64,000 bases of DNA, taken from a virus. The stretch lies in IMG/VR virus record IMGVR_UViG_3300004369_000002, positions 32,001 to 96,000 of that record; one strand, given 5' to 3'. The notes beneath the pieces were generated by a model. The model searched no databases, was not told where the DNA came from, and saw only the letters and a program-made list of their open reading frames with translations. Positions 15,482 to 46,401 of this stretch are shown here, one piece after another. Position 1 is the stretch's first letter; the number at the start of each line of letters is the position of its first letter. The position numbers and the translations under genes are program-made.

Positions 15482-16222
15482 ATGGCTGGTGCAGGTTTTC
15501 GAACATGGGTAGACGAGGAGCCTCTATATGCGGCTGATGTCGTTTCGTATCTCATGGAGCAGTCGGTTATGGTGTTTGCGTCCACGAGTGCCAGAGATGC
15601 CGCAATCTCTGTTCCGACGGAAGGAATGATCTCCTACACCAAGGATGACAATGTGATCCGTTACTTCGATGGGACGTTGTGGAATGCCATTGGGGAGATC
15701 ACTGGTGGCTCAGGTATTTCGGTTTCAGAGTCAACATCGTCGTTCACAATTTCGTTGAATGTTGATGCTAAGGGTGATTTGCTGGTTGGTACCGCCAACG
15801 ACACGGTGGCTCGTATCCCTGTCGGTTCCGATGGTCAGGTTTTGACTGCCGCGTCAGGAGAGACAACTGGTGTGGCTTGGCAAGATGGCTTCACTTATGC
15901 GTCGCCTTTAACAACACAGACAAAGTCAGCGTCTTACACGCTTAGTTCTGCTGATGCCGGAAAGTTGTCTTGGATTGATACAACCGCTGGTGATGTGATT
16001 ATTACGCTCCCTGATGGCGCTACAGATCCTGGCTTGGATGACGGTCACCAATTCATGTTTCTAAGTATCAGTTCTGCGAACGATGTTATTTTCCAGGGCA
16101 ATGGCACATCAAATGTCGTTAGTAAAAATGCCTTTCTGACCATGAAGGGCGCATATCATGCTGTAACAGCAGTATTCTACGCTACATCTGATACTTGGAT
16201 TCTGGTAGGCGATCTGGGATAA
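15482..16222 (+). CDS. tail fibre protein (AKGD repeat plus C-terminal YTL..D/W.L.GDL domain)
   Basis: baseplate-proximal position; motifs shared with other fibre genes in the window. Confidence 0.7.
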   Translation: MAGAGFRTWVDEEPLYAADVVSYLMEQSVMVFASTSARDAAISVPTEGMISYTKDDNVIRYFDGTLWNAIGEITGGSGISVSESTSSFTISLNVDAKGDLLVGTANDTVARIPVGSDGQVLTAASGETTGVAWQDGFTYASPLTTQTKSASYTLSSADAGKLSWIDTTAGDVIITLPDGATDPGLDDGHQFMFLSISSANDVIFQGNGTSNVVSKNAFLTMKGAYHAVTAVFYATSDTWILVGDLG

Positions 16223-16224
16223 TC

Positions 16225-17853
16225 ATGCCTAACTTCTCCTATTATCTAGCGTCGCAGGCTGTTTCGGGTCGTGAAGTCAATGTGTATCTTCTCGTTCATC
16301 GACTTGATACGACTGGAACCAACAAATTAACGGATCTTGTCAATGTTGGCCCGTACGATGTAAATGGTCGCGATACCTATGATCAAGTGGCGCTAGGAAT
16401 AAAAAATGATGGAGGTTTTGATTCTGATGGTCCATTTGATTACTGGCATATTTACGCGCCCCATAGTCGTGGGGACTCATTCTGGGGTCCTCTAAGTCCA
16501 ACTGCAAACTTCAACATCAGTGCACCGCAATACGACGGAGTTTACAGCGGTGGCGCAACATCATCAGAGCCAACAACAAGACTCACAGCGCTCAATCAAA
16601 ACATGCATGTGTATCAGGCTCTGGCTCAAGAAGTTATTGCCAATAACGACTATGACATGGTTGTTCTGGCGTGGATGTACGACGACCTGGTTTTGGGGCC
16701 GCTTATTGGTGTGCCACTGTATCAATGGGGAAGAAAAATTACTGCTGGTTCAGGGGACAGGTTTTTAAGTAATTTGTATTTTGACAATTGGAATACATAC
16801 CTCTACTGGGGTTTGCACGGCACTACCACATCGCTAGGTCAGACATATATGTACCTGCGAAAGTACAACCAGTCTGGCACATTGATCTGGCATCGACGAT
16901 TGCAGTCAACCGTAACATCGCCGACTCGTAATCAGATGGGAACCTTGGCGGGTTTTGACACTGGCCGAATAGTCGTGCCAATTACTGTTGCCGCCTCGTC
17001 CACGGAATACAAGTTTGGCCTTGCTTATTATGACGCGTCAGGCAACCTAGAGGCGAACTCTATTTACTACTCTTGGGACAGCCCTGCTGTGAGTGGCTAT
17101 GCGAGTCCAGCATCATCAGTAGTTTCGTCGCGCCCAGCGTGGGATCGACAATATTTTGGTTGGCACTGGTATGACTTTGATTACACTCAGGCTCAAACAA
17201 ATTTCATCGCGGCACTTGGAGCCAGTGTTGGCACATTCTTTTTCACGCAGACCACCGCACCAGGTTTGATGGTGTCTGGTGCCATTGAGACTCTTGGTTC
17301 TGATCCGGGCGATGCAATTTTCCTCTGCCTTAACGATGAAACAGGGTTTGCTGCCACATCGCTTGTTTTGATCAAATTGGATTTTGACGGTGATGTTATT
17401 TGGCAAAGAAAACTCACTGTAAGAGGGCAGTATGAAACTGGTGGCGCAGTCACCAGTGGAACAACAACGATTTCCCAAGCGAAAATTAACTGGCGTGACG
17501 AAGAGGGATTTTCCTTGGCCCTCACAGTGAAGGAAGAATCCGGCTGGGGTGGGGATCCCGACTCTCCGGAAATTACCGCTTTCATGTCTTTCCCCTCTGA
17601 TGGTTCGGGATTGACGGGAGAGTATGTCAAACTTGAATTTGATCAGGGATTCAACTCAAGCCTAAATCCTCTGGTGTCACTAGCGTATAAATATGAAGAA
17701 TCAAACTTTGTGTTTAGTGAACCAGTATTGATCAGCGAGACTCAAGTTGGGGCGACGAGCGCTACCACCAACCCGTTTAGCCAAACTAATGTCACATCTA
17801 GTCCAACGAAGACTGAGTTTTCGGTTGAATCGGCGAACGGAGTGTATCGATGA
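16225..17853 (+). CDS. putative receptor-binding protein, beta-propeller-like
   Basis: repeated KYNQSGTLIWHR / KLDFDGDVIWQR blade-like motifs. Confidence 0.5.
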   Translation: MPNFSYYLASQAVSGREVNVYLLVHRLDTTGTNKLTDLVNVGPYDVNGRDTYDQVALGIKNDGGFDSDGPFDYWHIYAPHSRGDSFWGPLSPTANFNISAPQYDGVYSGGATSSEPTTRLTALNQNMHVYQALAQEVIANNDYDMVVLAWMYDDLVLGPLIGVPLYQWGRKITAGSGDRFLSNLYFDNWNTYLYWGLHGTTTSLGQTYMYLRKYNQSGTLIWHRRLQSTVTSPTRNQMGTLAGFDTGRIVVPITVAASSTEYKFGLAYYDASGNLEANSIYYSWDSPAVSGYASPASSVVSSRPAWDRQYFGWHWYDFDYTQAQTNFIAALGASVGTFFFTQTTAPGLMVSGAIETLGSDPGDAIFLCLNDETGFAATSLVLIKLDFDGDVIWQRKLTVRGQYETGGAVTSGTTTISQAKINWRDEEGFSLALTVKEESGWGGDPDSPEITAFMSFPSDGSGLTGEYVKLEFDQGFNSSLNPLVSLAYKYEESNFVFSEPVLISETQVGATSATTNPFSQTNVTSSPTKTEFSVESANGVYR

Positions 17854-18190: not shown

Positions 18191-19207
18191 ATGACCGTTT
18201 CCCAGACAACCCGATTTGGTATCTACCGCTGGAGTGAAGATACTGATGCCTTCACGCGTCAGCAAATGGACTCTAGCCACGACTCCATCGAATCAAAAGG
18301 GGCCATTTTTACCTCGGGGACAACAATCCCTGCACCAAACCCCGAGCACGCCCGATCGTTCTTCTTCAAAACAGACACCCAAACGCTCTACTACTTCAAC
18401 GGCACAGATAATACGGGGTCGTGGGTGGCTATCGGCCAGTTCGGAAACACAGGCCAAATGGCCACTCTCGCATACGGCCAATCGAACAGTGCAGGCGTCG
18501 TCGATGCTGTGGCCCGAATTGACCATGTCCACGAACTGCCCACGATTGACACGACGGCTCTGATCCCAAAAAATATTTTGACAAGCAAGGGCGATCTGAT
18601 AGCCGGAGCAGGTCCCTCAACTCCAACAGTTCAGGGTGTGGGTGCGGACGGCCAGTTTCTGAAGGCTGACTCCTCATCGGCGACAGGTCTTTCTTGGGGA
18701 ACCGTAGTAACGACTGGTTTTCTGTCATCGACCGTGGTCGACGCGAAGGGCGATTTGCTGGTTGGAACAGGAAACGACACGGTTGCTCGTCGTTCTGTTG
18801 GGACAAACGGCCAACTTCTTATTGCCGACTCATTTCAATCAACCGGCTTGCGCTGGGGGAATGATCCTCAGTTCCAGAAGTACAGTGAAGGCTTGCTTTC
18901 AGTTGGCTCCTATTCTGGTTCCACTGTCGGCGATCAGGCCAACGTGTATTACATTGAATTGGGATCCAGTCAAACGTTGACCCTGTCTGCAGGTGTTGCG
19001 ACAGCAAATACTGCGTATTCGCTGTCCCTGATCATCAAGAACACGGCAGCCAGCGTCACAATGACTTTTCCTGCTTCGGTGAAATGGCCCAACGGCACGC
19101 GACCGACAGAAGATACAGGTCTTAACAAGACGAACCTGTGGACACTGATCACTTACGATCAGGGCACTACCTGGCTTGGCTTTTTGGCAGGACGAGGGTT
19201 CTCGTGA
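18191..19207 (+). CDS. tail fibre protein with two AKGD repeats
   Basis: ARIDHVH motif, two KGD repeats, C-terminal FPASVKWPNG...TYDQGTTW domain. Confidence 0.7.
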   Translation: MTVSQTTRFGIYRWSEDTDAFTRQQMDSSHDSIESKGAIFTSGTTIPAPNPEHARSFFFKTDTQTLYYFNGTDNTGSWVAIGQFGNTGQMATLAYGQSNSAGVVDAVARIDHVHELPTIDTTALIPKNILTSKGDLIAGAGPSTPTVQGVGADGQFLKADSSSATGLSWGTVVTTGFLSSTVVDAKGDLLVGTGNDTVARRSVGTNGQLLIADSFQSTGLRWGNDPQFQKYSEGLLSVGSYSGSTVGDQANVYYIELGSSQTLTLSAGVATANTAYSLSLIIKNTAASVTMTFPASVKWPNGTRPTEDTGLNKTNLWTLITYDQGTTWLGFLAGRGFS

Positions 19208-20181
19208 GCCATTTTGGTGTTGGTGGTGCTGGCCGTTTTAGGCCAAACATTGGGTATTTGCAGCGAAACCCTACTGCGCTTGGTTCGGGTTCCTCCATTG
19301 GAGGGGACATCGAACAAAATGGTAGTGGGGCAGCAAACCCTTACATTAGAATTGGTTCAGGTTTTAGGCCAGGGAACTCCCTGACGCAAACAAGCAACAG
19401 TCACGCTTTGTGGAATGTGTACTCGCCAAACGCTGACATTTCGTCCAACATGATTGTCCCTGATGGTAGCGGAATCTATTTCCGGTACAAAGACATCAAT
19501 AGGATGTGGCGTTTGATTATGGGCGAATATCTGTATAACTACTACACTGTTCCCGCTTTTTACCAAGAAGCGACATGCACGGGCTGCTATTTGACCAGTT
19601 ACTCAACAACACAACAAGAATTCTCATACGAGTGCACGTCAATATACTCATACGGAACCGTATACACATCCAGCAACTACAGTTACTGTAGTTATGGCGG
19701 ATACAGCCAACTATACGATTATAGTCGCGTTTGGAAATCGTATTGCGACTCATCTTGCGGATGCAACCCAACATACGCAAACCTATACGGCTGCGCAGGA
19801 AAATGCCAGGACTTTATTACCCGCACCTACTACCAGTGTACGGGCGGAACATCGGGAACATACATCGCTGGTTCACAAACACCAAACTATCGTCCCCGGC
19901 TTTTCTTGCAATACCGGAATGGCTCTTCGACGTGGACCAATCACGGAACAATCAATCTGACCGGTGCTGAGGTTGGCGGACTTAGGGTACGGCTCGTTGG
20001 TAACTCCATCGTTGTTTACAAGGGAACGTATGGTCAAACATCGGGGTGGACGCAAATCGGATCATATACGTCGTCTATTCACAATGACGGTCTCTTTCAT
20101 GGGATTGGGATAGGCAGCGAGAACCCCCAAAACCGTGGAGTAAGCAGCGGTATAGGCGCATTTACCATCGAAGGAATCTGA
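19204..20181 (+). CDS. fibre tip protein with Cys/Tyr-rich insert
   Basis: GTGA overlap with upstream gene; 10 Cys in a central segment. Confidence 0.55.
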   Translation: MSHFGVGGAGRFRPNIGYLQRNPTALGSGSSIGGDIEQNGSGAANPYIRIGSGFRPGNSLTQTSNSHALWNVYSPNADISSNMIVPDGSGIYFRYKDINRMWRLIMGEYLYNYYTVPAFYQEATCTGCYLTSYSTTQQEFSYECTSIYSYGTVYTSSNYSYCSYGGYSQLYDYSRVWKSYCDSSCGCNPTYANLYGCAGKCQDFITRTYYQCTGGTSGTYIAGSQTPNYRPRLFLQYRNGSSTWTNHGTINLTGAEVGGLRVRLVGNSIVVYKGTYGQTSGWTQIGSYTSSIHNDGLFHGIGIGSENPQNRGVSSGIGAFTIEGI

Positions 20182-20182: not shown

Positions 20183-20428
20183 ATGGCTCAAATTTTTGAG
20201 ATTTCGGACGAAACATTCCACGCAATAGCGGCCGGGGAAAAAAACGTGTACGCTATCAAAAAGTCGCGTTATAAAACGTTGGATGGGTGGGAAAAAGCGG
20301 GATCAAAAATCAGCATTTGTGTTGTCCGTGACGACTACACTGTGCGAGAGGAACTTCGGATTCCTATTTCAAAAATTGAGTCAGCACACCAGAGGTTAAG
20401 TAATGGTGATGGTACAGAAGCGCAATGA
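20183..20428 (+). CDS. hypothetical protein
   Basis: ORF packed in operon with RBS. Confidence 0.55.
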   Translation: MAQIFEISDETFHAIAAGEKNVYAIKKSRYKTLDGWEKAGSKISICVVRDDYTVREELRIPISKIESAHQRLSNGDGTEAQ

Positions 20429-20813
20429 CGTCCCTGAAAAAACGTTAATTGCCATTGTTTCTGATGTAACTTTGGTTCAATTAATGGAGATGGACCACGC
20501 TGCGGTCTATTGGGGTGTTATTACGGAAGATTTCCCGCGCGAGGAATGGAATCGTGTTTCCCGAGTTATGAACTTTGTTCAACTGGGAACATATGAAGAA
20601 TTCGTTGTCGACGAGGAAGGTATTGTCACTTTTGGTTGGTCCGAAATTCGTATTATTTCAAACCGCCAGAATCTTCATTTGGATCGTCGGCTTTTGGAAG
20701 CGGACAATATTCCGACGATTTCAGCAAAACCGTCTACTAGCGAGGGTAAGCGCAAGTTCCGTTTGCCTGGGTTTATCAGAAAATCAAAACCCGATTGTGG
20801 ATGTGGAGGTTGA
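20403..20813 (+). CDS. hypothetical protein ending in CGCGG
   Basis: ORF packed in operon. Confidence 0.55.
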   Translation: MVMVQKRNDVPEKTLIAIVSDVTLVQLMEMDHAAVYWGVITEDFPREEWNRVSRVMNFVQLGTYEEFVVDEEGIVTFGWSEIRIISNRQNLHLDRRLLEADNIPTISAKPSTSEGKRKFRLPGFIRKSKPDCGCGG

Positions 20814-20815
20814 CA

Positions 20816-21055
20816 ATGGAGGGTGAACAGAACGAGGAAATGGCCAAAATGGTTGACGATGCCTTTCCCGAAAGCATGGTCCTCAACTGGATTGTCATAG
20901 CCGAAACTGTCAACAGTGATGAAAGACATCTACAAATGGCGACAAGCGACGGCATGACAACATGGCTGGCGACCGGAATGCTAAACTGTGCCAACGAGAT
21001 AGTGATCAATCAGCACTACACCAATCAAGAGGAGTTTGACGATGGCGACAACTAA
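20816..21055 (+). CDS. small acidic hypothetical protein
   Basis: GGAGG RBS; WIVIAE...WLATGML pattern recalled from actinophage lysis regions. Confidence 0.55.
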   Translation: MEGEQNEEMAKMVDDAFPESMVLNWIVIAETVNSDERHLQMATSDGMTTWLATGMLNCANEIVINQHYTNQEEFDDGDN

Positions 21056-21374
21056 GCGCAAGCGAGCCAAGAAGAGCCAGGTCGGAGACCAGATGGCAAA
21101 AGGCGGCATCATGGCGCTCGTGGTCTACTTTGCCAACAAGGGCGACATCGACCCGGAACTCGTTGCAATCTGCATGCCCCTGATCGCAGGAATCATGGCA
21201 GTGGTCTCAACAAAAATTGGAGACCCCGCAATCGCATCGTTCTTCGATGTGGGCAAGAAGGACGCCGCAATTCCGGCTCCTGCAGCAGCGGAAGCAGCCC
21301 CCAAGGCCGAAGAGGCAGCCGCACCCGCAAAGAAGTCCGCAGGGCGACCCAAGAAGGCCGCACCCAAGAAGTAA
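21042..21374 (+). CDS. holin-like membrane protein with basic Ala/Lys/Pro tail
   Basis: two hydrophobic segments; AAPAKK-rich C-terminus. Confidence 0.45.
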   Translation: MATTKRKRAKKSQVGDQMAKGGIMALVVYFANKGDIDPELVAICMPLIAGIMAVVSTKIGDPAIASFFDVGKKDAAIPAPAAAEAAPKAEEAAAPAKKSAGRPKKAAPKK

Positions 21375-23947: not shown

Positions 23948-24400
23948 GTGGCTCAGAGATTCACAACGCCAATATCTATCGCGCAGTTATCTTCTGCGTC
24001 ATCAGATGCTATCTCTGTGCTTGTCGACGGCGATGTCAGCCCTCGGGTCAAAGTAGAAGCAGGGGGACGCCTCACGTGGGGTGATGGAACATCTTCCGGC
24101 GATGTTGTTCTATATCGTGACTCTGCAAATCTCCTCAAAACTGATGACACCTTTCAGGCCACTGGCGGTGTCGCCACTATTACGAACCCCGGTCCTCCCC
24201 CGAACGCTCTTGTTCGCCCAGTCGGAACACTTCTCGTTGACTCAACCAACGACACCTTCTACTTCTATGGAACGCTCGGCTGGACGCAAATCGTCGGCGG
24301 AGAAGGCGGCGGTGGCGGTGGCGAACAAATCAATCTTGACGGTGGCGACTCCGACGAAATTTTCGGTGGCATCGTAAGCATTGATGGAGGAACCGCCTGA
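23948..24400 (+). CDS. fibre adaptor ending in DGG motifs
   Basis: LYRDSANLLKTD; C-terminal LDGG...IDGGTA. Confidence 0.55.
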   Translation: MAQRFTTPISIAQLSSASSDAISVLVDGDVSPRVKVEAGGRLTWGDGTSSGDVVLYRDSANLLKTDDTFQATGGVATITNPGPPPNALVRPVGTLLVDSTNDTFYFYGTLGWTQIVGGEGGGGGGEQINLDGGDSDEIFGGIVSIDGGTA

Positions 24401-26124
24401 TGGGTACCCGCATACAATTCCGTCGTGATTCATCGTCCAACTGGACAATAAATAACCCCGTTCTGGCCGAAGGAGAAATGGGGCTAGAACTTGATACACG
24501 ACGTATCAAAATCGGTAACGGTTTAGACAACTGGAACAACCTGCCGTACGGCATTGCGACTATTGGCATTGACGAACTTGTTGATGTCACAATCACCGAC
24601 CCGCAAGACGGCGAACTCATCGTTTACGACAGTGCAACTAGCACATGGGTCAATACATCAGCATCACTCGTAGCCGAACAAAATGACCTAACCGACACGG
24701 TCATCACCAACCCACAGCCGGGCCAATACCTTCAGTACGACGGCACACAATGGGTTAACGGGGTCAGCCCGACCGGTGAACCCCTGGGCCACGAGGACAG
24801 AACCACCAGTCACATTGCATTCGACTCTGGAACTCTCACGTTCTCCATTGAACCAAAGTTACCAGTAACAGAATTTGTGGTCTGGGTTGGTGGCATCAAA
24901 TACACCTACACAACCACGCAAAGCGTCACAATCCCTGATGTCACCGGCCTCTACTACTTCTACTTTAATTTGTCTGGTGCGCTGGCATACAAGACCACCT
25001 ACTTTGACTGGCCCGTTGAAGCGCCGACTGCCTACCTATACTGGAACGCAACGACAAGCACCGCAACATTCTTTGCTGACGAACGGCATGGCATCGTCCT
25101 TGACTGGCAAACCCACGAATACCTCCATCGAACACGAGGTGCGGCATTCGCAGCAGGCTTCAACATTTCGGGCGTCATCACTAATGGCGACGGAACCCTT
25201 GACACCCATGTTGAGTTCAGCCTAAGCAACGGAACATTTTTTGACGAAGACCTACAGGTCGACATCGTCGATTCAGCAACACCAACAGTTGACACCTGGG
25301 AGCAAGACCTATCCCCAGCGTCAATTCCTCTCTACTACCTGGATGGTACAGAGTGGGTGCGCGATTCAGCCAGCACTAATCCCGTCAAAAAGGGAACGAC
25401 CTTCGCTGTCTACAACGAACTTTCACTTGGCTCATGGCAACTTACAGAAGTCGCCAACGGTGCTTACGTTATTTCTTGGATTGTCGCAACAAACCAACTC
25501 AACACCCCGGTTATCGCCATCATGGGACAAGGCGAATACACCAACATCGGGGACGCCGAGGACGAAATCTGGGAAACAGTCAACCTAGACGACTTCCCAG
25601 CCTTTGAATTCCGACCGCTGTACAAACTCATCTACCAGACTGGCTCTTATGGAAATACCACAAACTCGCGGCTCAGGGGAGTCAATGACCTTCGTGGCGG
25701 AGGTACCTCAGGGAGTTCTGGGGCAGGGACAACCGACCACGGACTCCTCACTGGGTTGGCAGACGACGACCACACCCAGTACCTCAACAATTCACGGCAC
25801 AACAACCTTGACCATTCGGACGCACTGGCAACAGCCTCACTGAGCGACCTGGGCGATGTCACTCTCGCTTCTATCAACACCGATGAACTTCTTCGGTGGA
25901 GTGGTACCGCCTGGGTGAACACCGATGGCATTACGATTGCGTCCACGGGTGCTGTCACCTTCAACGGCGTCAACACCTTCCCAACCGCCGCAGGTGGACT
26001 CGGCCAGTATCTGGCATCTGATGGTGCAGGGAATCTCGTTTGGACAAACGCAGGCTCAACAGCCGGTGGAATCATTAACAGTTCCTCATCAGGTGCTGTT
26101 CTCATCATGGAGATTGGACCGTAA
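24400..26124 (+). CDS. fibre protein with Mtd/hyaluronidase-like N-terminal domain
   Basis: RIQFRRD...WT..NPVLAEGEMGLELDT..IKIGNG...W; L.DV repeats; DDHTQY motif. Confidence 0.75.
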   Translation: MGTRIQFRRDSSSNWTINNPVLAEGEMGLELDTRRIKIGNGLDNWNNLPYGIATIGIDELVDVTITDPQDGELIVYDSATSTWVNTSASLVAEQNDLTDTVITNPQPGQYLQYDGTQWVNGVSPTGEPLGHEDRTTSHIAFDSGTLTFSIEPKLPVTEFVVWVGGIKYTYTTTQSVTIPDVTGLYYFYFNLSGALAYKTTYFDWPVEAPTAYLYWNATTSTATFFADERHGIVLDWQTHEYLHRTRGAAFAAGFNISGVITNGDGTLDTHVEFSLSNGTFFDEDLQVDIVDSATPTVDTWEQDLSPASIPLYYLDGTEWVRDSASTNPVKKGTTFAVYNELSLGSWQLTEVANGAYVISWIVATNQLNTPVIAIMGQGEYTNIGDAEDEIWETVNLDDFPAFEFRPLYKLIYQTGSYGNTTNSRLRGVNDLRGGGTSGSSGAGTTDHGLLTGLADDDHTQYLNNSRHNNLDHSDALATASLSDLGDVTLASINTDELLRWSGTAWVNTDGITIASTGAVTFNGVNTFPTAAGGLGQYLASDGAGNLVWTNAGSTAGGIINSSSSGAVLIMEIGP

Positions 26125-26456
26125 TGGCAGTAGGAGATCGTTCTGAACTCAGGTTGGCTGGACCGGCTGGTATCGGCACTACCACAACCACAATGATGAC
26201 TGTTCCTGCGGGGAGCGTCTATGTGACCAAGCAGGTTCTGTTCACCAACACAAACGGTATTGATGCGTATATTACTGTCGCTATAGGCGACCCGGCTACG
26301 GCATCAAATTGTATTTTCTACAACCTTCCTATAGCGGGATTTGATACAACCGTCTTTGACACGGCTTTGGTTATTGATACCGGCGAAACCATTCAGGCTT
26401 TTGCTGATCGTGCCGGTGTAAACATGACGATCACCGGTTGGGACAAGGAGGTCTAA
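26124..26456 (+). CDS. ~110-aa 'TVP' beta-sandwich adaptor
   Basis: paralogous to the N-terminus of 28234 and to 39100. Confidence 0.6.
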   Translation: MAVGDRSELRLAGPAGIGTTTTTMMTVPAGSVYVTKQVLFTNTNGIDAYITVAIGDPATASNCIFYNLPIAGFDTTVFDTALVIDTGETIQAFADRAGVNMTITGWDKEV

Positions 26457-29040: not shown

Positions 29041-29603
29041 GTGTTTTTGCCGGGATTGTAAGTTCCAGCGGCACTGATGTGCCCGCCCAGGACTGGACGC
29101 TCATTGGAGAAGACCACATTGATGCGGGTACATCCAATGAACTTGCCGTGCTAGGTGGTGCGCTTTCCTATTCGTCAGTGAAGTTCATTGCTGACATTGA
29201 TTCCTCGGCATCGCAGACTTTGACAATTCATTTCCCGGATGACCCCAGCGATGCCAAATATTACGAGCAGACAATAACTGAATCAGGAATTTCAGAGGTT
29301 GGATGGGTCATCACAACAGTCTCAACACCTGGTGGTGGGCTTGCTTGCAATTTAGATTCAGCAGGTCGATATGTAATTTTTGGGGAAATAACACAATCCG
29401 ACATTCCGGGCACTTATGGGCGGGTCGTCATAAATCTTCAGCGCACAAATAGTGCCAGTGATTATCAGATGACCACCATTGAGGGGTGGATGATGACTGC
29501 TGGGCCATGGTCAACTGCAAACTTCACGATGAGTGGTACTACAGGCTTTAAAACTGGAAGTCGACTTTCCGTTTATTCATCACCTGCGAGCGTGACGGGA
29601 TGA
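29037..29603 (+). CDS. triplet tip protein 1A
   Basis: GTGA overlap; ends GSRLSVYS. Confidence 0.55.
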   Translation: MSVFAGIVSSSGTDVPAQDWTLIGEDHIDAGTSNELAVLGGALSYSSVKFIADIDSSASQTLTIHFPDDPSDAKYYEQTITESGISEVGWVITTVSTPGGGLACNLDSAGRYVIFGEITQSDIPGTYGRVVINLQRTNSASDYQMTTIEGWMMTAGPWSTANFTMSGTTGFKTGSRLSVYSSPASVTG

Positions 29604-30133: not shown

Positions 30134-30135
30134 TT

Positions 30136-38477: not shown

Positions 38478-39098
38478 ATGGGCGTCAATTCCAATAACCC
38501 GATGAATGTCAGTGCAGGTGTCTGCACGACTCTTACTAAGCCGACTAATCCTTATGAGGGTCAGATGGTGTATGTCACTGATCTTCAAGAGTTGCAGGTT
38601 TGGAATGGAACGGTCTGGTTTTCCATTTACAGTGATACAACCCCTATTGAAACGGCCATTGCACAAAACACGTCAGATATCGCCTCCATAGAAGTAACTC
38701 TTACTGTTTATGGTTCAAATATTTCGGCAAATGCTTCCGCAATAGCCGAAATTGAAAGCGACCTAGTTCTTTTTGATTCACAAATCCAATCGAACGCTTC
38801 CACCATTGCTTCATTGCCCGTCTTGCCGAATGGAGGTGGGGCCAGCAGCGTATTGGTGAAAAACTCTTCGGTGGATTATGACGTGGCTTGGATTCCCATA
38901 GTCACCGATGGTGTCTCCAGAACTCTTGTCGATGCCAAGGGGGACATTTTGGTTGCATCGGCTAATGACAATGTTGTTCGTCTAGGGGTTGGCTCTGACG
39001 GACAAGCCCTAGTTGCTGACTCGTCCACGGCGACTGGCTTGAACTGGGCAGATATTGCCGACCCGATACCGTTGATTTTGGCGCTTGGAGGACTCTGA
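38478..39098 (+). CDS. fibre protein (PYEGQ motif, coiled coil, AKGD repeat, C-terminal LILALGGL)
   Basis: motif content. Confidence 0.6.
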   Translation: MGVNSNNPMNVSAGVCTTLTKPTNPYEGQMVYVTDLQELQVWNGTVWFSIYSDTTPIETAIAQNTSDIASIEVTLTVYGSNISANASAIAEIESDLVLFDSQIQSNASTIASLPVLPNGGGASSVLVKNSSVDYDVAWIPIVTDGVSRTLVDAKGDILVASANDNVVRLGVGSDGQALVADSSTATGLNWADIADPIPLILALGGL

Positions 39099-39099: not shown

Positions 39100-39420
39100 A
39101 TGGCTAATACCTTTACGAACACGCGCGCAGCGTTGACGGGGTCATCTGCGGTTGTTTACACCGTTCCGGTTGGGGCTACGGCCATCGTCCTTCTCGCTCA
39201 AGCAGCAAATGTCGATAACACTGGAGCGACTCCAGTAACTTTGATTTGGAACAACGGAACCGACGATACTCACTTGACAAAAGAAGTTTCTATTCCTGCA
39301 TACGCTGCCATCGGCTTACTGCAGGGCAAACTTGTTTTGAACCAGGGCAATAGCATTAAAGCGTACAGCGACGCCTCGTCTCGTGTGGAACTAACACTTT
39401 CGGTTCTGGAGATCACCTAA
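39100..39420 (+). CDS. ~106-aa 'YTVP' adaptor
   Basis: MANTF...VYTVP...KLVL...LSVLEIT. Confidence 0.65.
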   Translation: MANTFTNTRAALTGSSAVVYTVPVGATAIVLLAQAANVDNTGATPVTLIWNNGTDDTHLTKEVSIPAYAAIGLLQGKLVLNQGNSIKAYSDASSRVELTLSVLEIT

Positions 39421-40070
39421 TGTCTGGCTATATCGGTACGGTGCCAGATCCGACCGACGTAGCCGCTCCAGGGGTTTGGTCTATCAATGATGTTGCTTCC
39501 GGGGAAGCGGAGTCGCTTTGGCCAACGAATGAATCGTATGTTCACATTGCACGCACATTTGCCGGTGCTGGAGCCACCAGTTTGGTTCTAAATAATATCC
39601 CAGCAAATTTCACTGATTTGATGTTGTGTGGGACATTCACCTTTCAGGCTGGTGCTTTTGGTGGTTCGCAGCCTGGAGATTTGTTTCTTCAGTTGAACTA
39701 TACGACACCAGGTATCGCCTATAACTTTCTTCGTTTTTCGCAGGATCAGGCGGGTGTCATTTCTAATAGGGCATCCGGTTCACCCAACACAATTCAATTA
39801 AATAATCTCCCTCTTGCAATTGATTCACTTGTTGCAGTAACCATCAATATCCACGATTATCGTTCTGGCACCCCAAGTATAAATATTTCTGGTGAAGTGA
39901 ACGTTACAGATGTATCAAACTCAACTACAGAGGTAAATATAATTAGCGCATGCGCCGAGGTCAGCGCATTGTCAAGCATCCAAATATATTCCGACTATTT
40001 GCTTTTCGCCAGCAACTACTCTATAACTAATACTGTTGATTTGTATGGAACTAGACGGGTAACGCCATGA
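39420..40070 (+). CDS. triplet tip protein 2A
   Basis: GVWS...LWP N-terminal extension; NIPANFTDL...VDLYG. Confidence 0.55.
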   Translation: MSGYIGTVPDPTDVAAPGVWSINDVASGEAESLWPTNESYVHIARTFAGAGATSLVLNNIPANFTDLMLCGTFTFQAGAFGGSQPGDLFLQLNYTTPGIAYNFLRFSQDQAGVISNRASGSPNTIQLNNLPLAIDSLVAVTINIHDYRSGTPSINISGEVNVTDVSNSTTEVNIISACAEVSALSSIQIYSDYLLFASNYSITNTVDLYGTRRVTP

Positions 40071-40648
40071 CGTACGCGTACCAGCATATTCAAACATTTA
40101 CTCTTGCTTCAGACACGGCGAGCGTTGCCATAGGAAACCTCGCAGACGCGATGGCCATACCTGAAGTCAAGTCTATAGAACTACGAATTGAAGGCATTTC
40201 TACAGCAACTTCCGGAGACTACGACTTCGTTTCTCATACAATTGTAAGTTCAGGATCCGTTTGGGATTCAAGTTTTATCGCATGGGACGACTCCCTTTTC
40301 TTTATGCAGTCAAATGCGGCATACAATCAAACTGGTGGAATCATAGGTCAGTTGCCAACCCAATTAACCAGCCCTCAGACGCCGGGTTCGATTGTCTGTT
40401 TGTACCCCCACGTATATCGGTACGACGATTCGTTCAACCCAGGTCAAATCGGCTACGGAATGCTTACCGGTTTATCCAAGTCAAATTACATGGAAACCAA
40501 CCCGACTCGTCCGATTTTGGCTTACTCTAATATGAGTTACACGACAACGGGCTACATGACATCGCTTTTCAATTCCTCGGCTAGATTCCAGTTACAAAAC
40601 GGCTCTTTCAAAGCCGGAACAAAGTTCTCTTTTTACGGGTGGTGCTGA
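40067..40648 (+). CDS. triplet tip protein 2B
   Basis: YQHIQTFTLASDTASV...AGTKFSFYG. Confidence 0.55.
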   Translation: MTYAYQHIQTFTLASDTASVAIGNLADAMAIPEVKSIELRIEGISTATSGDYDFVSHTIVSSGSVWDSSFIAWDDSLFFMQSNAAYNQTGGIIGQLPTQLTSPQTPGSIVCLYPHVYRYDDSFNPGQIGYGMLTGLSKSNYMETNPTRPILAYSNMSYTTTGYMTSLFNSSARFQLQNGSFKAGTKFSFYGWC

Positions 40649-40649
40649 G

Positions 40650-41219
40650 ATGGGACAGCATGTTGAATTCATCGCCCAATTACGACCTGCTGGAACGACT
40701 GTGACCTCAATGGGGTGGGCTGATATTCCGCAGACCTATGAAGATCTCGTGATTCACTACACCGCCAAATCCACGACAACGGTAACCCAACAAGGAGGGG
40801 CTCCCGCTCCGCAAGTTCGGGTTGATCTCATCAGTTCCCCTTTCCCTACCACGTTGCAGACTGAAGTTTTTCAACTAGATCAACCCGAGTACGACTACCT
40901 AAGTCAGGCTGTTCCTGATATCAACCTTTTAGCCACAGACTCCAGATCCGCGCATTCGGTGGGCTGCGGGTGGATTAAAATATACAACTATTCTTTTGCT
41001 AACGGATCGCCCGTTTTTAAGGTGGAAGCATTTTCGGCACTTCCAGAATTTGCGTCAAACACAAACGACAATAAGCCGAGTCTATACGTTCATGGGACAG
41101 GAAGCGCGGAGGGATTGCCGGTGACAGATATAAATTTTGTTATATCAACAGGCTATTTTTCTACTTCGGCATTCATGAACTCCACATTTCGTTTATACGG
41201 AATCATAAACCGATTTTAA
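40650..41219 (+). CDS. triplet tip protein 2C
   Basis: DIPQTYEDL...STFRLYG. Confidence 0.55.
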   Translation: MGQHVEFIAQLRPAGTTVTSMGWADIPQTYEDLVIHYTAKSTTTVTQQGGAPAPQVRVDLISSPFPTTLQTEVFQLDQPEYDYLSQAVPDINLLATDSRSAHSVGCGWIKIYNYSFANGSPVFKVEAFSALPEFASNTNDNKPSLYVHGTGSAEGLPVTDINFVISTGYFSTSAFMNSTFRLYGIINRF

Positions 41220-41232: not shown

Positions 41233-41535
41233 ATGGAACAGTACCCCATGAAAACAATATTTGACATCAAGACGGGCCAAACGGAAACGGTTCCGTTTAC
41301 CGCCGAAGAATATGCGGAACTTGAACAACGACGAGAAGCCGCTGATCTAAACATGAGCGGAATCCGATCTCGTCGAAACTCACTTTTGTCAGCATCCGAC
41401 TGGACCCAACTGGCCGACTCCCCCTTGGACGATGACACCAAATCGGCATGGGCCACATACCGCCAGGAACTACGTGACCTGACAACAACATACTCGCGTG
41501 TTTCTGAAGTGGTCTGGCCAACTCCTCCGAGTTGA
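41233..41535 (+). CDS. tail fibre assembly chaperone (Tfa-like)
   Basis: RRNSLLSASDWTQLADSP...WATYRQELRDL...WPTPP. Confidence 0.85.
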   Translation: MEQYPMKTIFDIKTGQTETVPFTAEEYAELEQRREAADLNMSGIRSRRNSLLSASDWTQLADSPLDDDTKSAWATYRQELRDLTTTYSRVSEVVWPTPPS

Positions 41536-41543: not shown

Positions 41544-42377
41544 ATGGGACAGGGTGGAGTAATAGGACAACCGAACCGACCTTCAACATCTGGGGATGTT
41601 GGGATTTGGCAAAACTGGAATCCGTCTTCCAATCTATTCACTCAACAGTCATTTGACATAAGTTCAAGACATGCAAGTGGCGTGTGGGATCTTGCCTCTA
41701 TGGCGCAATTCACCGGCAACAATCAGTGGCCGGTTCCCGTGGAATCCATGGTTCATCTATTCAACGCCAAGTCTAGTGTATTTTCTGGTATTTCGCTAAA
41801 CCTCACAAATATTCCGCAAGACTACAATCATCTATATATGTTAATTGACACCGTTGGTGATGCAGGAAGTTTTCACACAGACACCCAGTTTTGGTACCAC
41901 CCATTAGCCCTTACTCTTTTCAACACGACTACTGCAACTGGAAGTTCTTTGACCGGTGGGCGTACGCGATTCTGGCTCCGATACTGGTCTAAAGAGGGAG
42001 GAAATTCTTACCAAGAGTTTTCGGACTTGAACACCACCCAAAACACTCATCCAATAGGAGTTATTGCACCAATCAATTGGGCGAACCAAATAGGATCACA
42101 GTTTGGTGGCTATAGCCTAACCTCACTAACTGAGTTATGGTTAATGAACTACTCAAAAACCGACTTTGACTCGGTGCGCAGTATTTTTAGCACATCTTTT
42201 GGAATCGGGTCTTATGCGGGCTGGCCCGAAAATGCTTATCCCATATTTCATTCGACAACTTACGGAGACGCTGGATCATCATCAATACGATCCCTTGCTT
42301 TTCGGACATTTAATAATGGAGGAACAACCGGGAATGATCCAATAATGATAAGAGTTGCTGCGTTTGGGGTGAAATAA
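41544..42377 (+). CDS. triplet tip protein 3A
   Basis: GGVIG...SGVWDL...QWP extension; NIPQDYNHL. Confidence 0.55.
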   Translation: MGQGGVIGQPNRPSTSGDVGIWQNWNPSSNLFTQQSFDISSRHASGVWDLASMAQFTGNNQWPVPVESMVHLFNAKSSVFSGISLNLTNIPQDYNHLYMLIDTVGDAGSFHTDTQFWYHPLALTLFNTTTATGSSLTGGRTRFWLRYWSKEGGNSYQEFSDLNTTQNTHPIGVIAPINWANQIGSQFGGYSLTSLTELWLMNYSKTDFDSVRSIFSTSFGIGSYAGWPENAYPIFHSTTYGDAGSSSIRSLAFRTFNNGGTTGNDPIMIRVAAFGVK

Positions 42378-42926
42378 ATGATCGGGTTTGAAAAAATTTC
42401 CTCTTGGCGTTCAACGTCTCAAATCATAAGCAGTTCTATTACCATAAATAATCTGCCAAGTATTTATAAAAACTTTAGAATATTTTACTCATCCAACTAC
42501 AACGGCGGAACTTCCAATAACCTTTTCATAATAAAGTTAGAAACTTCTGCCAATCCGATTTCTCGGCTCCGCAGTGGCGACATAGTCGGTTTTACCGGCG
42601 ATTTTCAAAACTATAGTACGCAGAGTCTTCCAAATAGCGACGACTACGTGACGATTGGTGAAGGCGGTAGCCGAGGTAAAATTGCCGCTCAAATTGATTT
42701 ATCTTACGTAGGGGATAATGGGCCCTACACTGATCGCGTGCTTGTGTCTAGTCGATCTTTTTTTCACAATCTAAGCAACTTCTCAGTTTCCGGATTCAAG
42801 GCTAATGGCACGATAGAACTTGCATCGCCCTCTGATCGAATAAGGAGCATAACAATTTCAGCGCCCGCTGACACTTTTGAAATAGATGTATACCAATACA
42901 GTTTTGAAATTTATGGAATGCGGTAG
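42378..42926 (+). CDS. triplet tip protein 3B
   Basis: ITINNLPSIYKNF...SFEIYG. Confidence 0.55.
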   Translation: MIGFEKISSWRSTSQIISSSITINNLPSIYKNFRIFYSSNYNGGTSNNLFIIKLETSANPISRLRSGDIVGFTGDFQNYSTQSLPNSDDYVTIGEGGSRGKIAAQIDLSYVGDNGPYTDRVLVSSRSFFHNLSNFSVSGFKANGTIELASPSDRIRSITISAPADTFEIDVYQYSFEIYGMR

Positions 42927-42928
42927 TT

Positions 42929-43456
42929 ATGGCATACAAATTACTGGGCTCATCAGAACTAGCCTCCGATACATCTAATGTAACACTCTCCAATCTTTCA
43001 TTTGACGGGCATACTATTGGCGTCAGGTATGACCTTACCGCGAGCCTGGCGGGTGCGAGCATTTTAACCGTAACCACCAATCAGGGTGTAAGTACAAGCA
43101 ATTACAATTTTTATGGTTTTGGCGATGTGGAGGCAAATTCTTTTTATGATGACAACAACACGGTTTTGCAAACATTTTATTGCAGTTCTACAACCCTCCG
43201 AATGGTAGGCGATTTAACAATATACACATACGGACCAGACGCCTCAGGCGGAAATTACACCAATGAAAGAAATGTAACAATACGCAATAAGTACAACTCC
43301 TTCGGTCCTGATAGTCTGCCAAACCCCAGCGATGAGTTCTACATTTATCGAAACCTCACATTCCAAACGCCGGACTCAGTCACAATATCAATACAAAAAC
43401 AGCAAGGAACATTTGCGGCGGGCAGCAAATTCACCTTCTACCAGATCACCAACTAA
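42929..43456 (+). CDS. triplet tip protein 3C
   Basis: YKLLGSSELASDTSNVTLSNL...AGSKFTFY. Confidence 0.55.
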   Translation: MAYKLLGSSELASDTSNVTLSNLSFDGHTIGVRYDLTASLAGASILTVTTNQGVSTSNYNFYGFGDVEANSFYDDNNTVLQTFYCSSTTLRMVGDLTIYTYGPDASGGNYTNERNVTIRNKYNSFGPDSLPNPSDEFYIYRNLTFQTPDSVTISIQKQQGTFAAGSKFTFYQITN

Positions 43457-43472
43457 AAGGTAAAATAGAACC

Positions 43473-44462
43473 ATGGCAGCAGTAGATTTCCCCGATACCC
43501 CCACGACAGGGCAGGTTTTCCAGGTTGGCACCCGACGCTGGGAATATGACGGCACCAAGTGGAAAGCCAAGCCGTTCGGCAATGAGCCATTCACCGCCAA
43601 CACCGTCACAGCGACAACTGTCAACGCCACAACCCTAAATGTTGACAGTACCGAGATTGACCTCACCGGCACAACAACCGGCGACACCCTCGTCTACGAC
43701 GGAACCAAATACTCCCCAAGCGCCTTCAGCGCAAAAATCGATGCCTCCCTCTACAGCGCCAAAGGAAGCATACTCACCGCAGATGGCCTCCCCGCAATAA
43801 CCGAATTGGCAGTCGGCGCAAACGGAACGGTACTCACAGCCGATAGCAGTACAGCCACCGGGCTGACCTGGGATGTCATCACCGATGACACAAAAATCGC
43901 CAAATCCACCCTACTCGCCAAGGGTTCCCTCATAACAGCCACCTCTTCGGGAACGCCCGTAAACTTTGGTGTCGGAACCGACGGAAACATTTTGCTTGCC
44001 GACTCCACCCAGGGTTCTGGTTTGCGTTGGGGAGCAATCTCCTCCTCTTCAATCGGCGACGACACCATAGATACAGCCAAAATAGTCGATCTTGCCGTAA
44101 CAACAGGCAAACTGGCGGCCTACAGCGTAACGTCTGACAAAATGGGGCCCCTAACACTAAATTACGTTAGTTTGGCCTCTTACCTGCTAATTGGTGCAGA
44201 CCGAAACAAAGTTATCATAATGAATAGCAGTGTATCCAACCAAACTCTCACCATACCCGCAGACGCCTCAGTGTTCTTCGAAACCGGAACCCAAATAGCA
44301 GTAATCCGTGGAACAACCAACGAAGTAACCATCGCGGGTGACACCGGAGTAACCATCCGAAGCGACGGCAACAAAAAGCGAATCAGCCAAACTTGGACTT
44401 CAGTATCGTTGATCAAACTTGCGCCAGATGAGTGGTTTTTGGCAGGATCCGTCAAGACATGA
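43473..44462 (+). CDS. fibre protein with two AKGS repeats and C-terminal WFLAG domain
   Basis: DFPDTPTTGQVF...WEYDGTKW N-terminus; paralogous C-terminal domain. Confidence 0.65.
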   Translation: MAAVDFPDTPTTGQVFQVGTRRWEYDGTKWKAKPFGNEPFTANTVTATTVNATTLNVDSTEIDLTGTTTGDTLVYDGTKYSPSAFSAKIDASLYSAKGSILTADGLPAITELAVGANGTVLTADSSTATGLTWDVITDDTKIAKSTLLAKGSLITATSSGTPVNFGVGTDGNILLADSTQGSGLRWGAISSSSIGDDTIDTAKIVDLAVTTGKLAAYSVTSDKMGPLTLNYVSLASYLLIGADRNKVIIMNSSVSNQTLTIPADASVFFETGTQIAVIRGTTNEVTIAGDTGVTIRSDGNKKRISQTWTSVSLIKLAPDEWFLAGSVKT

Positions 44463-45229
44463 GACTTCTCAAATGGTTCGGAATTCTCTCTGGTGGCGGG
44501 CCCATCGAAGCCACCGGAGGCACAATAACCACCTCGGGGAACTATCGAATTCACTCATTCACCTCAACCTCCAACTTCGTCATCACGTCCGGAACGGGCA
44601 TAGTTGAATATCTCATCGTTGGTGGTGGCGGAGGAGCAGGCAGCAACGGTGAACAGTCCGGAGGAGGCGGAGGCGGATCCGTCAGAACTGGCTCCTTTGA
44701 GATGTCATCCGGAACATATCTAGTCACAGTTGGAACATCGGTCGGAGCAAACAGCAACGGAAACGCCTCCGCACTTAACGGTATAACCGCCCCTGGTGGC
44801 GGACGAGGCTCATGGAGTTCTGGTCCACCCGGTAGTAGCGGAACTGGAGGCGGGGGATCTCCCTGGTATCCCGCTGGTGGTACTGGTAGCCCTGGCGGTA
44901 ACGGCTATCAGTATGGCGACAACAGCGCAGGAGGTGGCGGCGGTGGTGCAGGAACCAGTGCCACCAGTCGAAACGGAGGTTCAGGGTTCCTCTCGGCTAT
45001 CACCGGAACAAATACCTACTATGGCGGCGGCGGAGGCGGCGCTGGATGCTGCTATAACAAATGTTCTGGTGGAGGAAACTCTGGTGGAGCCGGAGGAGCC
45101 GGAGGCGGAGGTAACGGTTACCTAAACGGCGGCCCAACAAGCGGAACAAATGGCCTCGGAGGGGGTGGAGGCGCAGGCGGAGGCAACGGCGGATCTGGTA
45201 TTGTCATCGTCAGATACCTAATCGAATAG
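44459..45229 (+). CDS. glycine-rich fibre tip protein
   Basis: ATGG...YRIHSFT...EYLIVGGGG...GGSGIVIVRY glycine-rich domain. Confidence 0.8.
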   Translation: MRLLKWFGILSGGGPIEATGGTITTSGNYRIHSFTSTSNFVITSGTGIVEYLIVGGGGGAGSNGEQSGGGGGGSVRTGSFEMSSGTYLVTVGTSVGANSNGNASALNGITAPGGGRGSWSSGPPGSSGTGGGGSPWYPAGGTGSPGGNGYQYGDNSAGGGGGGAGTSATSRNGGSGFLSAITGTNTYYGGGGGGAGCCYNKCSGGGNSGGAGGAGGGGNGYLNGGPTSGTNGLGGGGGAGGGNGGSGIVIVRYLIE

Positions 45230-45237
45230 GAAGCGCC

Positions 45238-46401
45238 ATGCCACTTTTCGCACAAATAGATAACACCCGAGTTGTTGCAACCCTGAGCACACCAGAGGAT
45301 ATTCCAACAGAAGATGCGCACACATTTCTTGGTGCCAACTACGGGGAATCCTTTCTCTACGTTCCGATTGATGGCATAACGACAACCAACGGCACCACCA
45401 TTGGCGACGACTGCACCTATAACGCAGCCAATGATGTTTTTATATCTGGACAACCATCAGGTGCCCATGCTCTTAACGAAAATTTTGAATGGGTGATCGC
45501 AAAGCCTATTGATGTTTCGCATCGTGGACTTCAGCATCTGCACCATCCGGTTTGGAATGAAGAGCACCAAAAATGGCACTTTGTCAACGTTACGACAGCC
45601 GCAAAGAAAGACTCAACAAATAGGCAAGGCATTTTTGTTTTGTGTAAAGCAACGCAACTTTTTGCCGGAGAAACTATTAAGACTATTTTTCCCTTAATGT
45701 CCTCTGATCCGCCAATTTGCTTCTTTGGGAATGGTCCTTATAACAGTGATGGAACCGCCAAAGAGGACATGTGGGAAGTATGTGCTCCCGATTTTGAGCG
45801 TGGAACAACCCCGGAGATTTTCCAAGCAACGAATATTTTCCGTGACTATGGTGTTGACATCACAGACGCCGACGCTGACAACAATCATGGTTGGCATACG
45901 ATCAATAAATTCCTTTACATTCTTGATGGTTCGCCATACTTCTATGTTGTCCATTTGGAGTTATTGAATTTGCGTTCCGGACATCCCGAATATGACGGTG
46001 TCATGGAACACTCGGAGGCTTTTGAACAGGCGCTCAGGAGATTCCCTCCGGCGCGGATGGCCAACTCCATGGCCGAACTGATTCGACTAATAGCGGAATG
46101 GGACTGGGCGTATCACCATCTTGACAGTGTTGAACCAATGGCGAAACTCTCGCACGACTTCTTTGCAACAGTCGATATGCCACAAGACGTTTACGATGCA
46201 CTCATTGAGGGCGTAGACGAAAGCCCGCTTGCTCGCTGGCTTAACGGCGACACCGACGCATACGCCCTCCCAGATGAGCGCTCGCCTATTCCTTCGATTG
46301 TTCAAGAATGGATTGATGAAAAGGTTTGGGACTTGCGTCATCGTATTGAACCCGCTCCTTTCAATGTGGCCACTTATAATGAGGAGCATTACCGGCTGTG
46401 A
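45238..46401 (+). CDS. partner of the glycine-rich protein with extra C-terminal domain
   Basis: FAQID...IGD..YN...DVFI..QP...W N-terminus. Confidence 0.5.
   Translation: MPLFAQIDNTRVVATLSTPEDIPTEDAHTFLGANYGESFLYVPIDGITTTNGTTIGDDCTYNAANDVFISGQPSGAHALNENFEWVIAKPIDVSHRGLQHLHHPVWNEEHQKWHFVNVTTAAKKDSTNRQGIFVLCKATQLFAGETIKTIFPLMSSDPPICFFGNGPYNSDGTAKEDMWEVCAPDFERGTTPEIFQATNIFRDYGVDITDADADNNHGWHTINKFLYILDGSPYFYVVHLELLNLRSGHPEYDGVMEHSEAFEQALRRFPPARMANSMAELIRLIAEWDWAYHHLDSVEPMAKLSHDFFATVDMPQDVYDALIEGVDESPLARWLNGDTDAYALPDERSPIPSIVQEWIDEKVWDLRHRIEPAPFNVATYNEEHYRL

Follow-up and report, generated by a model that had tools for sequence, protein, structure and literature searches.

Matched protein ends at gene boundaries suggest modular assembly of tail fibres in a contractile-tailed phage

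Introduction

The host range of tailed phages is set by their receptor-binding fibres, and to our knowledge the assembly of fibres from many parts is known in detail for a few model phages only. How the products of one long fibre locus might be joined to each other is the question raised by IMG/VR virus record IMGVR_UViG_3300004369_000002, a single 104.8-kb contig of which bases 32001-96000 were analysed; this stretch of 64,000 nucleotides is referred to as the window, and all coordinates are window positions. A first-pass annotation made from the sequence had described about 35 consecutive fibre genes at 15.5-46.4 kb whose adjacent ends recur in pairs, and had read these pairs as a standardised docking code. 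Our analysis suggests that interchangeable parts probably snap together to form the fibres, with three kinds of matched junction between neighbouring products: a short hydrophobic C-terminal tail followed by a TVP jelly-roll domain, a C-terminal domain of T4 gp9/gp10-like type followed by an anchor-like N-terminal peptide, and a bipartite DGG C-terminus followed by an Mtd_N domain. One of these is of a known type and two seem to be undescribed.

Results

The fibre locus and its phage

All genes from 110 to about 49.5 kb of the window lie on the + strand. Upstream (5') of the locus are the tail sheath, a tape-measure-sized protein of 1238 amino acids (aa) and baseplate genes, which the locus adjoins directly. 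Since genes for a Baseplate_J and a gp25-like protein stand just upstream and a PF16778 chaperone is encoded within, the interval reads as a tail-fibre locus. The sheath shares about 38% identity with its counterparts in Gordonia and Arthrobacter myophages, the C-terminal gp10-like fibre domain is present in 223 Gordonia phage records, and part of the giant 1913-aa protein matches Actinomycetia phage DSL-LC01; the host is likely actinobacterial, judging from these similarities. Megablast of 16 kb of the region against 50,697 phage records returned nothing, so that the phage has no close cultured relative at the DNA level in that set.

Between 15482 and 46401 we counted 37 open reading frames (ORFs). 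The run described by the first-pass annotation exists, but four small ORFs within it (20183-21374) have no fibre features. Paralogy inside the window is extensive (blastp), and an all-against-all comparison identified a KGD-type repeat of about 40 aa common to seven proteins. The recurring modules are this shaft repeat, a TVP jelly-roll of about 107 aa, a gp9/gp10-like domain of about 105 aa, Mtd_N, tips of about 180 aa and one chaperone, while Pfam matches above curated cut-offs were limited to Mtd_N (24400), a glycine-rich domain (44459) and the tail-fibre chaperone (41233). The explanation that we find fairly probable, taken as a whole, is that the interval is the receptor-binding tail-fibre locus of a contractile-tailed phage of about 105 kb, and that it is modular, its neighbouring products being joined through the three matched kinds of junction. 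Such a locus would have been assembled by duplication and module shuffling, with consecutive products docking via portable end modules. The termini and domains quoted in the first-pass annotation all lie where it placed them, and each of the three pairings recurs outside this genome, at gene boundaries of many unrelated phages.

A hydrophobic tail, a TVP jelly-roll and an N-terminal peptide

The tails ..AVLIMEIGP (24400-26124), ..KAFAYFMGA (27205-28230) and ..PLILALGGL (38478-39098) each precede a TVP domain, namely 26124-26456, the N-terminus of 28234-29040 and 39100-39420, and a fourth tail, ..ALAIALG (32320-32724), stands before the 1913-aa gene 32733-38474. The three TVP domains were detected with E values of 1e-34, 1e-28 and 3e-22 by a profile iterated on outside sequences, scores that are partly circular as the profile was seeded from the same three domains. 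They have no significant Pfam match, their only PHROG match is the unnamed family phrog_1276, and no solved structure in the PDB matches TVP by sequence. The AlphaFold model of 39100-39417 (predicted local distance difference test, pLDDT, 93.5) is a compact jelly-roll of about 107 aa. It matches other small oligomeric jelly-rolls best, at Z about 10, and none of these matches is specific. The TVP family comprises 8036 clusters in the protein library (E up to 1e-3). Nearly all members are free proteins of about 106-115 aa, and some are N-terminal in a longer fibre. Two or three copies in tandem on one polypeptide were seen in five library proteins, and in view of these copies the free protein could act as an oligomer. 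A search with a single sequence for longer proteins containing TVP returned none, which is weak evidence. In the profile search of the full library, free, tandem and N-terminal were the only arrangements of TVP, and no fusion of tail and TVP occurred among the top matches inspected.

In contigs related to the phage there are 20 distinct TVP genes whose upstream neighbour can be called, and in each case the product of that neighbour ends in a hydrophobic tail; the termini upstream of TVP have a median hydrophobicity score of 2.6 compared with 0.5 in the background (Mann-Whitney p 5e-13). Tails of the 24400 class precede TVPs of the same cluster in contigs L221 and L233, and the gene order around the first TVP and 26456 is repeated in these two and in L201. 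The gene downstream of TVP is also marked: an N-terminal motif [YFH][IVF][GP] was found in 24 of 47 distinct genes and in 34 of 1019 background genes (p 2e-20). Three cultured phages whose hosts differ widely repeat the order of tail, TVP and N-terminal peptide: in Puniceispirillum phage HMO-2011 gp43 ends in ..AMAIAL and is followed by TVP and a gene beginning MPYIGQ.., in cyanophage S-TIM5 an 81-aa protein ending in ..LSIALG is followed by TVP and MPHIGN.., and in Delftia phage PhiW-14 gp63 ends in ..WAIVMG, followed by TVP and a gene beginning ..GFIGATP. Methylophilales phage Melnitz is a further cultured carrier of the three-part order. As read from sequence, the junction is one of three parts, the tail, the jelly-roll and the peptide that opens the next gene product, the last of which the first-pass annotation did not include. 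The tail would bind the TVP jelly-roll, or alternatively an N-terminal domain of the giant protein, and TVP would hold the [YFH][IVF][GP] peptide of the next protein, so that the three-part joint could chain fibre segments.

The class of tail tracks the TVP cluster (..IALG; ..ILALG or ..YILALE; ..ILMDIG-like; and W-F-x-G or F-F-I-Y-G with the 'MANTYKNA' cluster). The canonical tail has conserved residues, with Ala at position -6 in 45 of 49 cases along with Ile/Val, Ala/Gly, Leu and Gly. The first-pass proposal that such ends bind the neighbouring product was examined by complex prediction: three copies of the last 55 residues of 38478 with three copies of TVP 39100 scored 0.42 and the best of three controls 0.01. 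Of 80 solved complexes 58 pass the mark applied to such scores, as do 2 of 110 mismatched pairs; just 7 of the 80 pass with 0.60 or under, as do both of the mismatches. The runs share at least 84% of contacts and the partner pLDDT is at least 89. This model lends weak support to docking. With a strong genomic rule, co-variation of tail and cluster and this weak model, we incline slightly towards physical docking through the three-part junction.

A C-terminal gp10-like domain and the tip that follows

Genes 15482, 28234 and 43473 have homologous C-terminal domains (blastp E 2e-12 and 5e-14), and the genes following them begin MPNFSYYLASQ (ATG 16225), SVFAGIVSSSG (GTG 29037) and MRLLKWFGILSGGG (ATG 44459), the last two starts overlapping the preceding stop. 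None of the products of 15482, 28234 and 43473 has a Pfam match, and their PHROG matches are to 'minor tail protein' or 'tail fiber protein', with no curated gp10 or branching-domain family among them; a PDB sequence search with the domain gave nothing significant. The model of 28714-29037 (pLDDT 91.7) is most similar to the C-terminal domain of the Pa223 capsid spike (Z 14.0). It also resembles a KP1 baseplate protein (Z 9.8), CBA120 TSP4 residues 74-182 (Z 9.4, root-mean-square deviation 3.3, 96 residues aligned), T4 gp10 residues 41-149 (Z 8.5) and T4 gp9 (Z 8.2), the next unrelated matches lying below Z 5. According to this model the domain has the T4 gp9/gp10-like fold, of the CBA120 XD type.

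At least 194 relatives of the domain were found in viral contigs. In every locus examined it forms the end of the protein, 2-4 residues past ..GDL, and the next gene very often starts at or overlaps the stop and begins MPILG..ASS, MPIIGN.SSGG, MRLLTVIAGSGG or similar. Such anchor-like N-termini were found by a strict pattern in 16 of 36 distinct cases and in 33 of 1133 background genes (p 3e-14), and in about 26 of the 36 when judged by eye; the three N-termini of the window fit this class loosely. The bodies behind them differ, being glycine-rich, fibronectin-like or of the ~180-aa tip family, with lengths of 143-830 aa, and glycine-rich proteins with N-termini like that of 44459 follow the domain in four other contigs. 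In Gordonia phage Nubi, gene 36 encodes a 118-aa 'minor tail protein' consisting of approximately the gp10-like domain only, and gene 37, 3 nucleotides on, a 198-aa hypothetical protein; by sequence, this pair is a minimal version of the junction in a cultured isolate. The domain would serve as the socket for the hydrophobic-Ser/Gly N-terminal peptide of the following tip. Given the fold, the genomic rule and, by analogy, an experimentally validated counterpart, docking is likely at this junction.

A DGG C-terminus and Mtd_N

Gene 23948-24400 ends in ..LDGG..FGG..IDGGTA, and gene 24400 then carries Mtd_N at residues 5-41 (PF18454, E 3e-13, 49.9 bits where the cut-off is 26.3). In a dedicated scan, a bipartite ..DGG....YGG....ID.G.A end was found before the Mtd_N-initiated gene at 17 of 22 distinct junctions, usually with a one-base overlap of stop and start and with upstream bodies otherwise unrelated, e.g. 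collagen-like; in a separate set of loci a DGG-like motif was present near the end of the upstream gene at all eight distinct junctions. The N-terminal part of the 150-aa DGG protein is common to longer fibre proteins, its longer relatives share only that part and none of them has Mtd_N, thus no fusion of DGG and Mtd_N was found. A PDB sequence search with the DGG protein gave nothing significant, and with the Mtd_N of 24400 it matched only N-termini of isolated phage hyaluronidases. The pairing is real as a genomic rule, at the level of sequence, and the DGG end may pair with the Mtd_N of the next fibre; with the genomic rule as the evidence, we hold docking here to be an evenly balanced matter.

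Other neighbours of the canonical tail

The giant protein, of which 241 relatives were found in viral contigs, matches phrog_677 'baseplate wedge tail fiber protein connector' at residues 783-898 (E 4e-24), and it may carry a docking domain of its own. A PDB sequence search with it returned nothing significant. The ..IALG(G) tail stands directly before a giant homologue in about half of the related contigs, and in the others a tail protein of 76-80 aa and a protein of 206-234 aa stand ahead of it. In many relatives, the order is a 76-80-aa protein ending in ..SIALGG, the 206-234-aa protein and the giant. Elsewhere, proteins of 594-1081 aa ending in ..AIALGG precede a conserved 246-323-aa protein that begins MPVSTREGLKDY. 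The canonical tail has at least four kinds of downstream neighbour.

Tip triplets

Three triplets of proteins of about 175-277 aa that end in ..[FLV][YF]G lie at 29037-30681, 39420-41219 and 41544-43456. An N-terminal extension is present only on the first member of each; in the first triplet SVFAGIVSSSG occurs on 29037 only. Such an arrangement would be compatible with heterotrimeric tips that have one anchor each. A tip-family profile seeded from other phages recovered 30136 (E 6e-35), 39420 (E 6e-28) and 40650 (E 3e-32), members of a family that also lies downstream of gp10-like domains in other phages. The nine tips could not be treated as one family: besides these three clear members 42378 was borderline (E 0.011) and the rest were not significant. 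Genes 40067 and 42929 are related (blastp E 2e-5), the nearest atlas clusters of the third triplet are all viral and unnamed, and a PDB sequence search with the tip family gave nothing significant.

Features of the locus and side observations

The coordinates of the features are listed in Table 1. The tip protein at 16225-17853 has no Pfam or PHROG match. A module ..GVCT..T.P..P.EGQ....TD.....W.G..W opens three fibre proteins (26456-26600, 27205-27360 and 38478-38630; blastp E 1e-12 to 5e-5) and also the gene after TVP in contigs L201, L221 and L233; it possibly serves as one more attachment module. The four small ORFs that break the fibre array encode 81, 136, 86 and 112 aa; the second (20403-20813) has no Pfam or PHROG match, and in the last a hydrophobic middle goes with a tail rich in Lys, Ala and Pro. 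At 19138-20181 lies an ORF of up to 347 aa that is rich in Tyr, Cys, Ser and Gly, lacks a Pfam or PHROG match and overlaps the end of the fibre gene 18191-19207; its start is uncertain.

Table 1. Features of the fibre locus and of the baseplate genes before it (window positions; a single number gives one position only).
Position	Strand	Feature	Evidence or remark
10214	+	Hub-like protein	Upstream of fibre locus
12258	+	gp25-like protein	Upstream of fibre locus
12556	+	Baseplate_J protein	Upstream of fibre locus
15482-16222	+	Fibre 1, 246 aa: one ~40-aa KGD-type repeat, C-terminal gp10-like domain (15902-16219)	blastp paralogy, alignments, fold of paralogous domain
16225-17853	+	Tip protein, 542 aa, begins MPNFSYYLASQ; candidate plug for the gp10-like domain before it	ATG start 2 nucleotides past upstream stop
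18191-19207	+	Fibre, 338 aa: two KGD-type repeats, tail-fibre C-terminal domain	phrog_9017 tail fiber protein, E 2e-15
23948-24400	+	150-aa protein; last ~23 residues (24329-24397) are the bipartite DGG..GG..IDGGTA	Motif kept upstream of Mtd_N genes
24400-26124	+	Fibre, 574 aa: N-terminal Mtd_N, C-terminal hydrophobic tail ..AVLIMEIGP	PF18454, E 3e-13
26124-26456	+	TVP jelly-roll adaptor 1, 110 aa	TVP profile, E 1e-28
26456-27199	+	Protein beginning MPLDSALG; candidate tip downstream of TVP 1; weak C-terminal BclA_C (C1q-like) match	PF18573, E 2e-5, under Pfam cut-off
27205-28230	+	Fibre, 341 aa, ends ..KAFAYFMGA (hydrophobic tail)	
28234-29040	+	Fibre, 268 aa: TVP domain (28234-28548), KGD repeat, C-terminal gp10-like domain (28714-29037)	TVP profile, E 3e-22; fold model
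29037-30681	+	Tip triplet 1, ~180 aa each: 29037-29603, 29600-30133, 30136-30681	GTG start overlaps upstream stop
32320-32724	+	Fibre piece, 134 aa, ends in canonical tail ..ALAIALG	
32733-38474	+	1913-aa virion structural protein, conserved N-terminus MAKELI..	phrog_5838, E 6e-177; phrog_677, E 4e-24
38478-39098	+	Fibre, 206 aa, ends ..PLILALGGL	Chain 1 of complex prediction
39100-39420	+	TVP jelly-roll adaptor 3, 106 aa	phrog_1276, E 2e-12; AlphaFold pLDDT 93.5
39420-41219	+	Tip triplet 2: 39420-40070, 40067-40648, 40650-41219; first begins MSGYIGTVP	N-terminal peptide typical downstream of TVP
41233-41535	+	Tail-fibre assembly chaperone, 100 aa	PF16778, E 1e-20, 73.8 bits (cut-off 26.6); phrog_4912
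41544-43456	+	Tip-like triplet 3, ~180-277 aa: 41544-42377, 42378-42926, 42929-43456	Sizes, end motifs
43473-44462	+	Fibre, 329 aa: KGD repeats, C-terminal gp10-like domain (44139-44459)	
44459-45229	+	Glycine-rich tip, begins MRLLKWFGILSGGG; ATG 44459 overlaps upstream stop	PF21722, E 1e-15

Discussion

Matched ends at gene boundaries can have causes other than docking. The terminal motifs and the small downstream proteins might serve folding, the tail and the DGG end as trimerisation or registration caps and TVP or the post-gp10 gene as an assembly chaperone. Folding of fibres often begins at the C-terminus, as in T4 fibritin and adenovirus fibre, chaperone genes commonly follow phage fibre genes, the locus itself contains a PF16778 chaperone, and the gp10-like model also matches a fibre C-terminus in the chaperone-substrate complex 6o38 (Z 7.4). 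We nevertheless regard this explanation as unlikely, for TVP homologues are named virion structural proteins by their sources (S-TIM5, MaMV-DC, S-SCSM1), TVP is fused N-terminally to fibres in 28234 and in two library proteins, an odd position for a chaperone, and the gp10-like domain is followed by genes for large and varied tip-like proteins (180-830 aa).

Even less probable, in our estimation, is that the pairings reflect inherited gene order only, fibre cassettes having been duplicated and spread as blocks without functional coupling of their ends. The extensive paralogy in the window, the genetic linkage of neighbours and the bias of related-contig samples towards relatives all fit that account. 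Within a single TVP cluster, however, the upstream proteins are unrelated and differ wholly in length (75-456, 80-574 and 69-1944 aa in three clusters) yet retain their tail class, the DGG motif is likewise carried by collagen-like and other bodies, and the three-part order spans phages of cyanobacteria and of alpha- and beta-proteobacteria, both myo- and podoviruses. A DNA-level role of the boundary sequences as recombination linkers for swapping fibre cassettes, with no protein interface, is the least probable of the three, since codons vary where the amino acids are fixed (3-5 codons per conserved tail residue, with five for Leu at -1, drawn from both codon families, and four for Gly; the gp10-like domain shows the like at its W-V-L-V-G-D-L end, as does the MPILG start), which indicates selection on the peptide and not on the DNA, even though the motifs are located exactly at gene boundaries and recombination at conserved motifs swaps adhesin specificity in T-even distal fibre loci; such a role could hold alongside docking. 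Virion-protein naming, heterologous upstream bodies and the codon data are less consistent with the three alternatives than with docking of neighbouring products.

Several observations weigh against docking as we propose it. When TVP subfamilies were sampled more broadly, only about 22 of 42 distinct junctions had a hydrophobic or aromatic tail, and an anchor-like N-terminus is missing from about 10 of the 36 distinct genes that follow the gp10-like domain. The ..IALG(G) tails also precede at least two families other than TVP and the giant protein (the 206-234-aa and the 246-323-aa proteins), and several downstream neighbours for one tail class fit poorly with a strict one-plug-one-socket code; a TVP-like socket at the N-terminus of the giant protein was considered and has no support from sequence (hhalign probability 0.2%). 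The domain occupies an internal, N-proximal position in the gp10-like systems already described, whereas here it is the extreme C-terminal ~105 residues. Adjacent genes are co-inherited, therefore co-variation alone is no proof of recognition. The motifs, the folds and their conserved adjacency are observed, with codon evidence of selection on the protein at the first two junctions. From them we infer that the matched ends dock and with what stoichiometry, and the product could be either a branched tree or a set of chains; the sole complex prediction, which concerns the first junction, is weak. The standardised docking code of the first-pass annotation stands in part: the three pairings recur at boundaries with unrelated upstream bodies, codons vary at the first two junctions and the socket of the second has a gp10-like fold, but the canonical tail class has several downstream neighbours, and the branching of the appendages and receptor binding by their tips are putative.

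A broader proposal can be put forward tentatively. The tail, TVP and the [YFH][IVF][GP] peptide might form a class-matched connector with which phages of at least four bacterial phyla, both myo- and podoviruses (8036 clusters of the family), chain and exchange fibre segments. DGG/Mtd_N would be a second undescribed connector, and in this phage both would act alongside the gp10-like sockets, on which heterotrimeric tips of three adjacent paralogues may be mounted. The tail motif strings were also looked for in full-text literature, with no relevant result. New here are the DGG/Mtd_N rule and the joint occurrence of the three junction types, next to each other, in a myovirus akin to actinobacterial phages and not to T4. 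If these are true connectors, they would provide annotation rules for thousands of 'hypothetical' virion proteins of aquatic and soil phages, an account of how such phages swap their host-binding tips, and compact, portable docking parts with which phage host range could be engineered in the laboratory.

Comparison with known systems

As a compact jelly-roll of 8-9 strands, TVP resembles the Ena subunits of Bacillus endospore appendages, the trimeric cement protein of KHP40 and the nucleoplasmin core (Ena1B and KHP40 cement each at Z 10.0, HDT1 at Z 10.2), and Ena subunits are linked through a short terminal connector peptide. The likeness is one of fold only, at 9-14% identity and with many unrelated jelly-rolls at similar Z, and no homology is claimed. 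The head-binding domain of the P22 tailspike was considered as a TVP homologue and set aside as unsupported (profile against PDB 1lkt, E 0.54, not significant; not among the listed fold matches).

With the T4 long tail fibre (gp34-gp35-gp36-gp37) the locus shares genes in structural order, polypeptides arranged end to end and small proteins between shafts, and the gene preceding TVP in PhiW-14 carries the annotation of a gp36-like hinge connector. TVP differs from the gp35 and gp36 hinges in having no sequence homology to either, phrog_1276 being its only match, and we know of no rule of hydrophobic tail and N-terminal peptide described for T4. The separate glycine-rich tip gene just downstream of a fibre, whose product would be mounted on the fibre C-terminus, is reminiscent of gp38 on the gp37 tip of T2 and S16; in contrast, the glycine-rich domain here is PF21722 and the putative socket is gp10-like, not a gp37 tip.

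The closest counterpart is that of the gp10-like junction. In the E. coli phages G7C, CBA120 (TSP1-4) and K1-5 and in Klebsiella podoviruses a T4gp10-like branching domain has been modelled as receiving the conserved N-terminal peptide of the next receptor-binding protein (PMC6872550), and the interaction of branching domain and docking peptide was validated experimentally in KP32, K11 and KP34, where phage engineering showed it to be essential (PMC13352976). As in those systems, we find a beta-sandwich domain combined with a conserved N-terminal peptide encoded by the adjacent gene, in units that would be re-used to mount several binding proteins. By contrast, the domain here belongs to a thin repeat fibre with no enzymatic domain, the peptide consensus is MPILG..ASS-like, there is no Pfam-level match, and the phage resembles actinobacterial myophages. 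By this analogy the second junction is a variant of the known system of branching domain and docking peptide, and it would extend the gp10-like docking principle from enterobacterial phages to phages of the Actinobacteria type.

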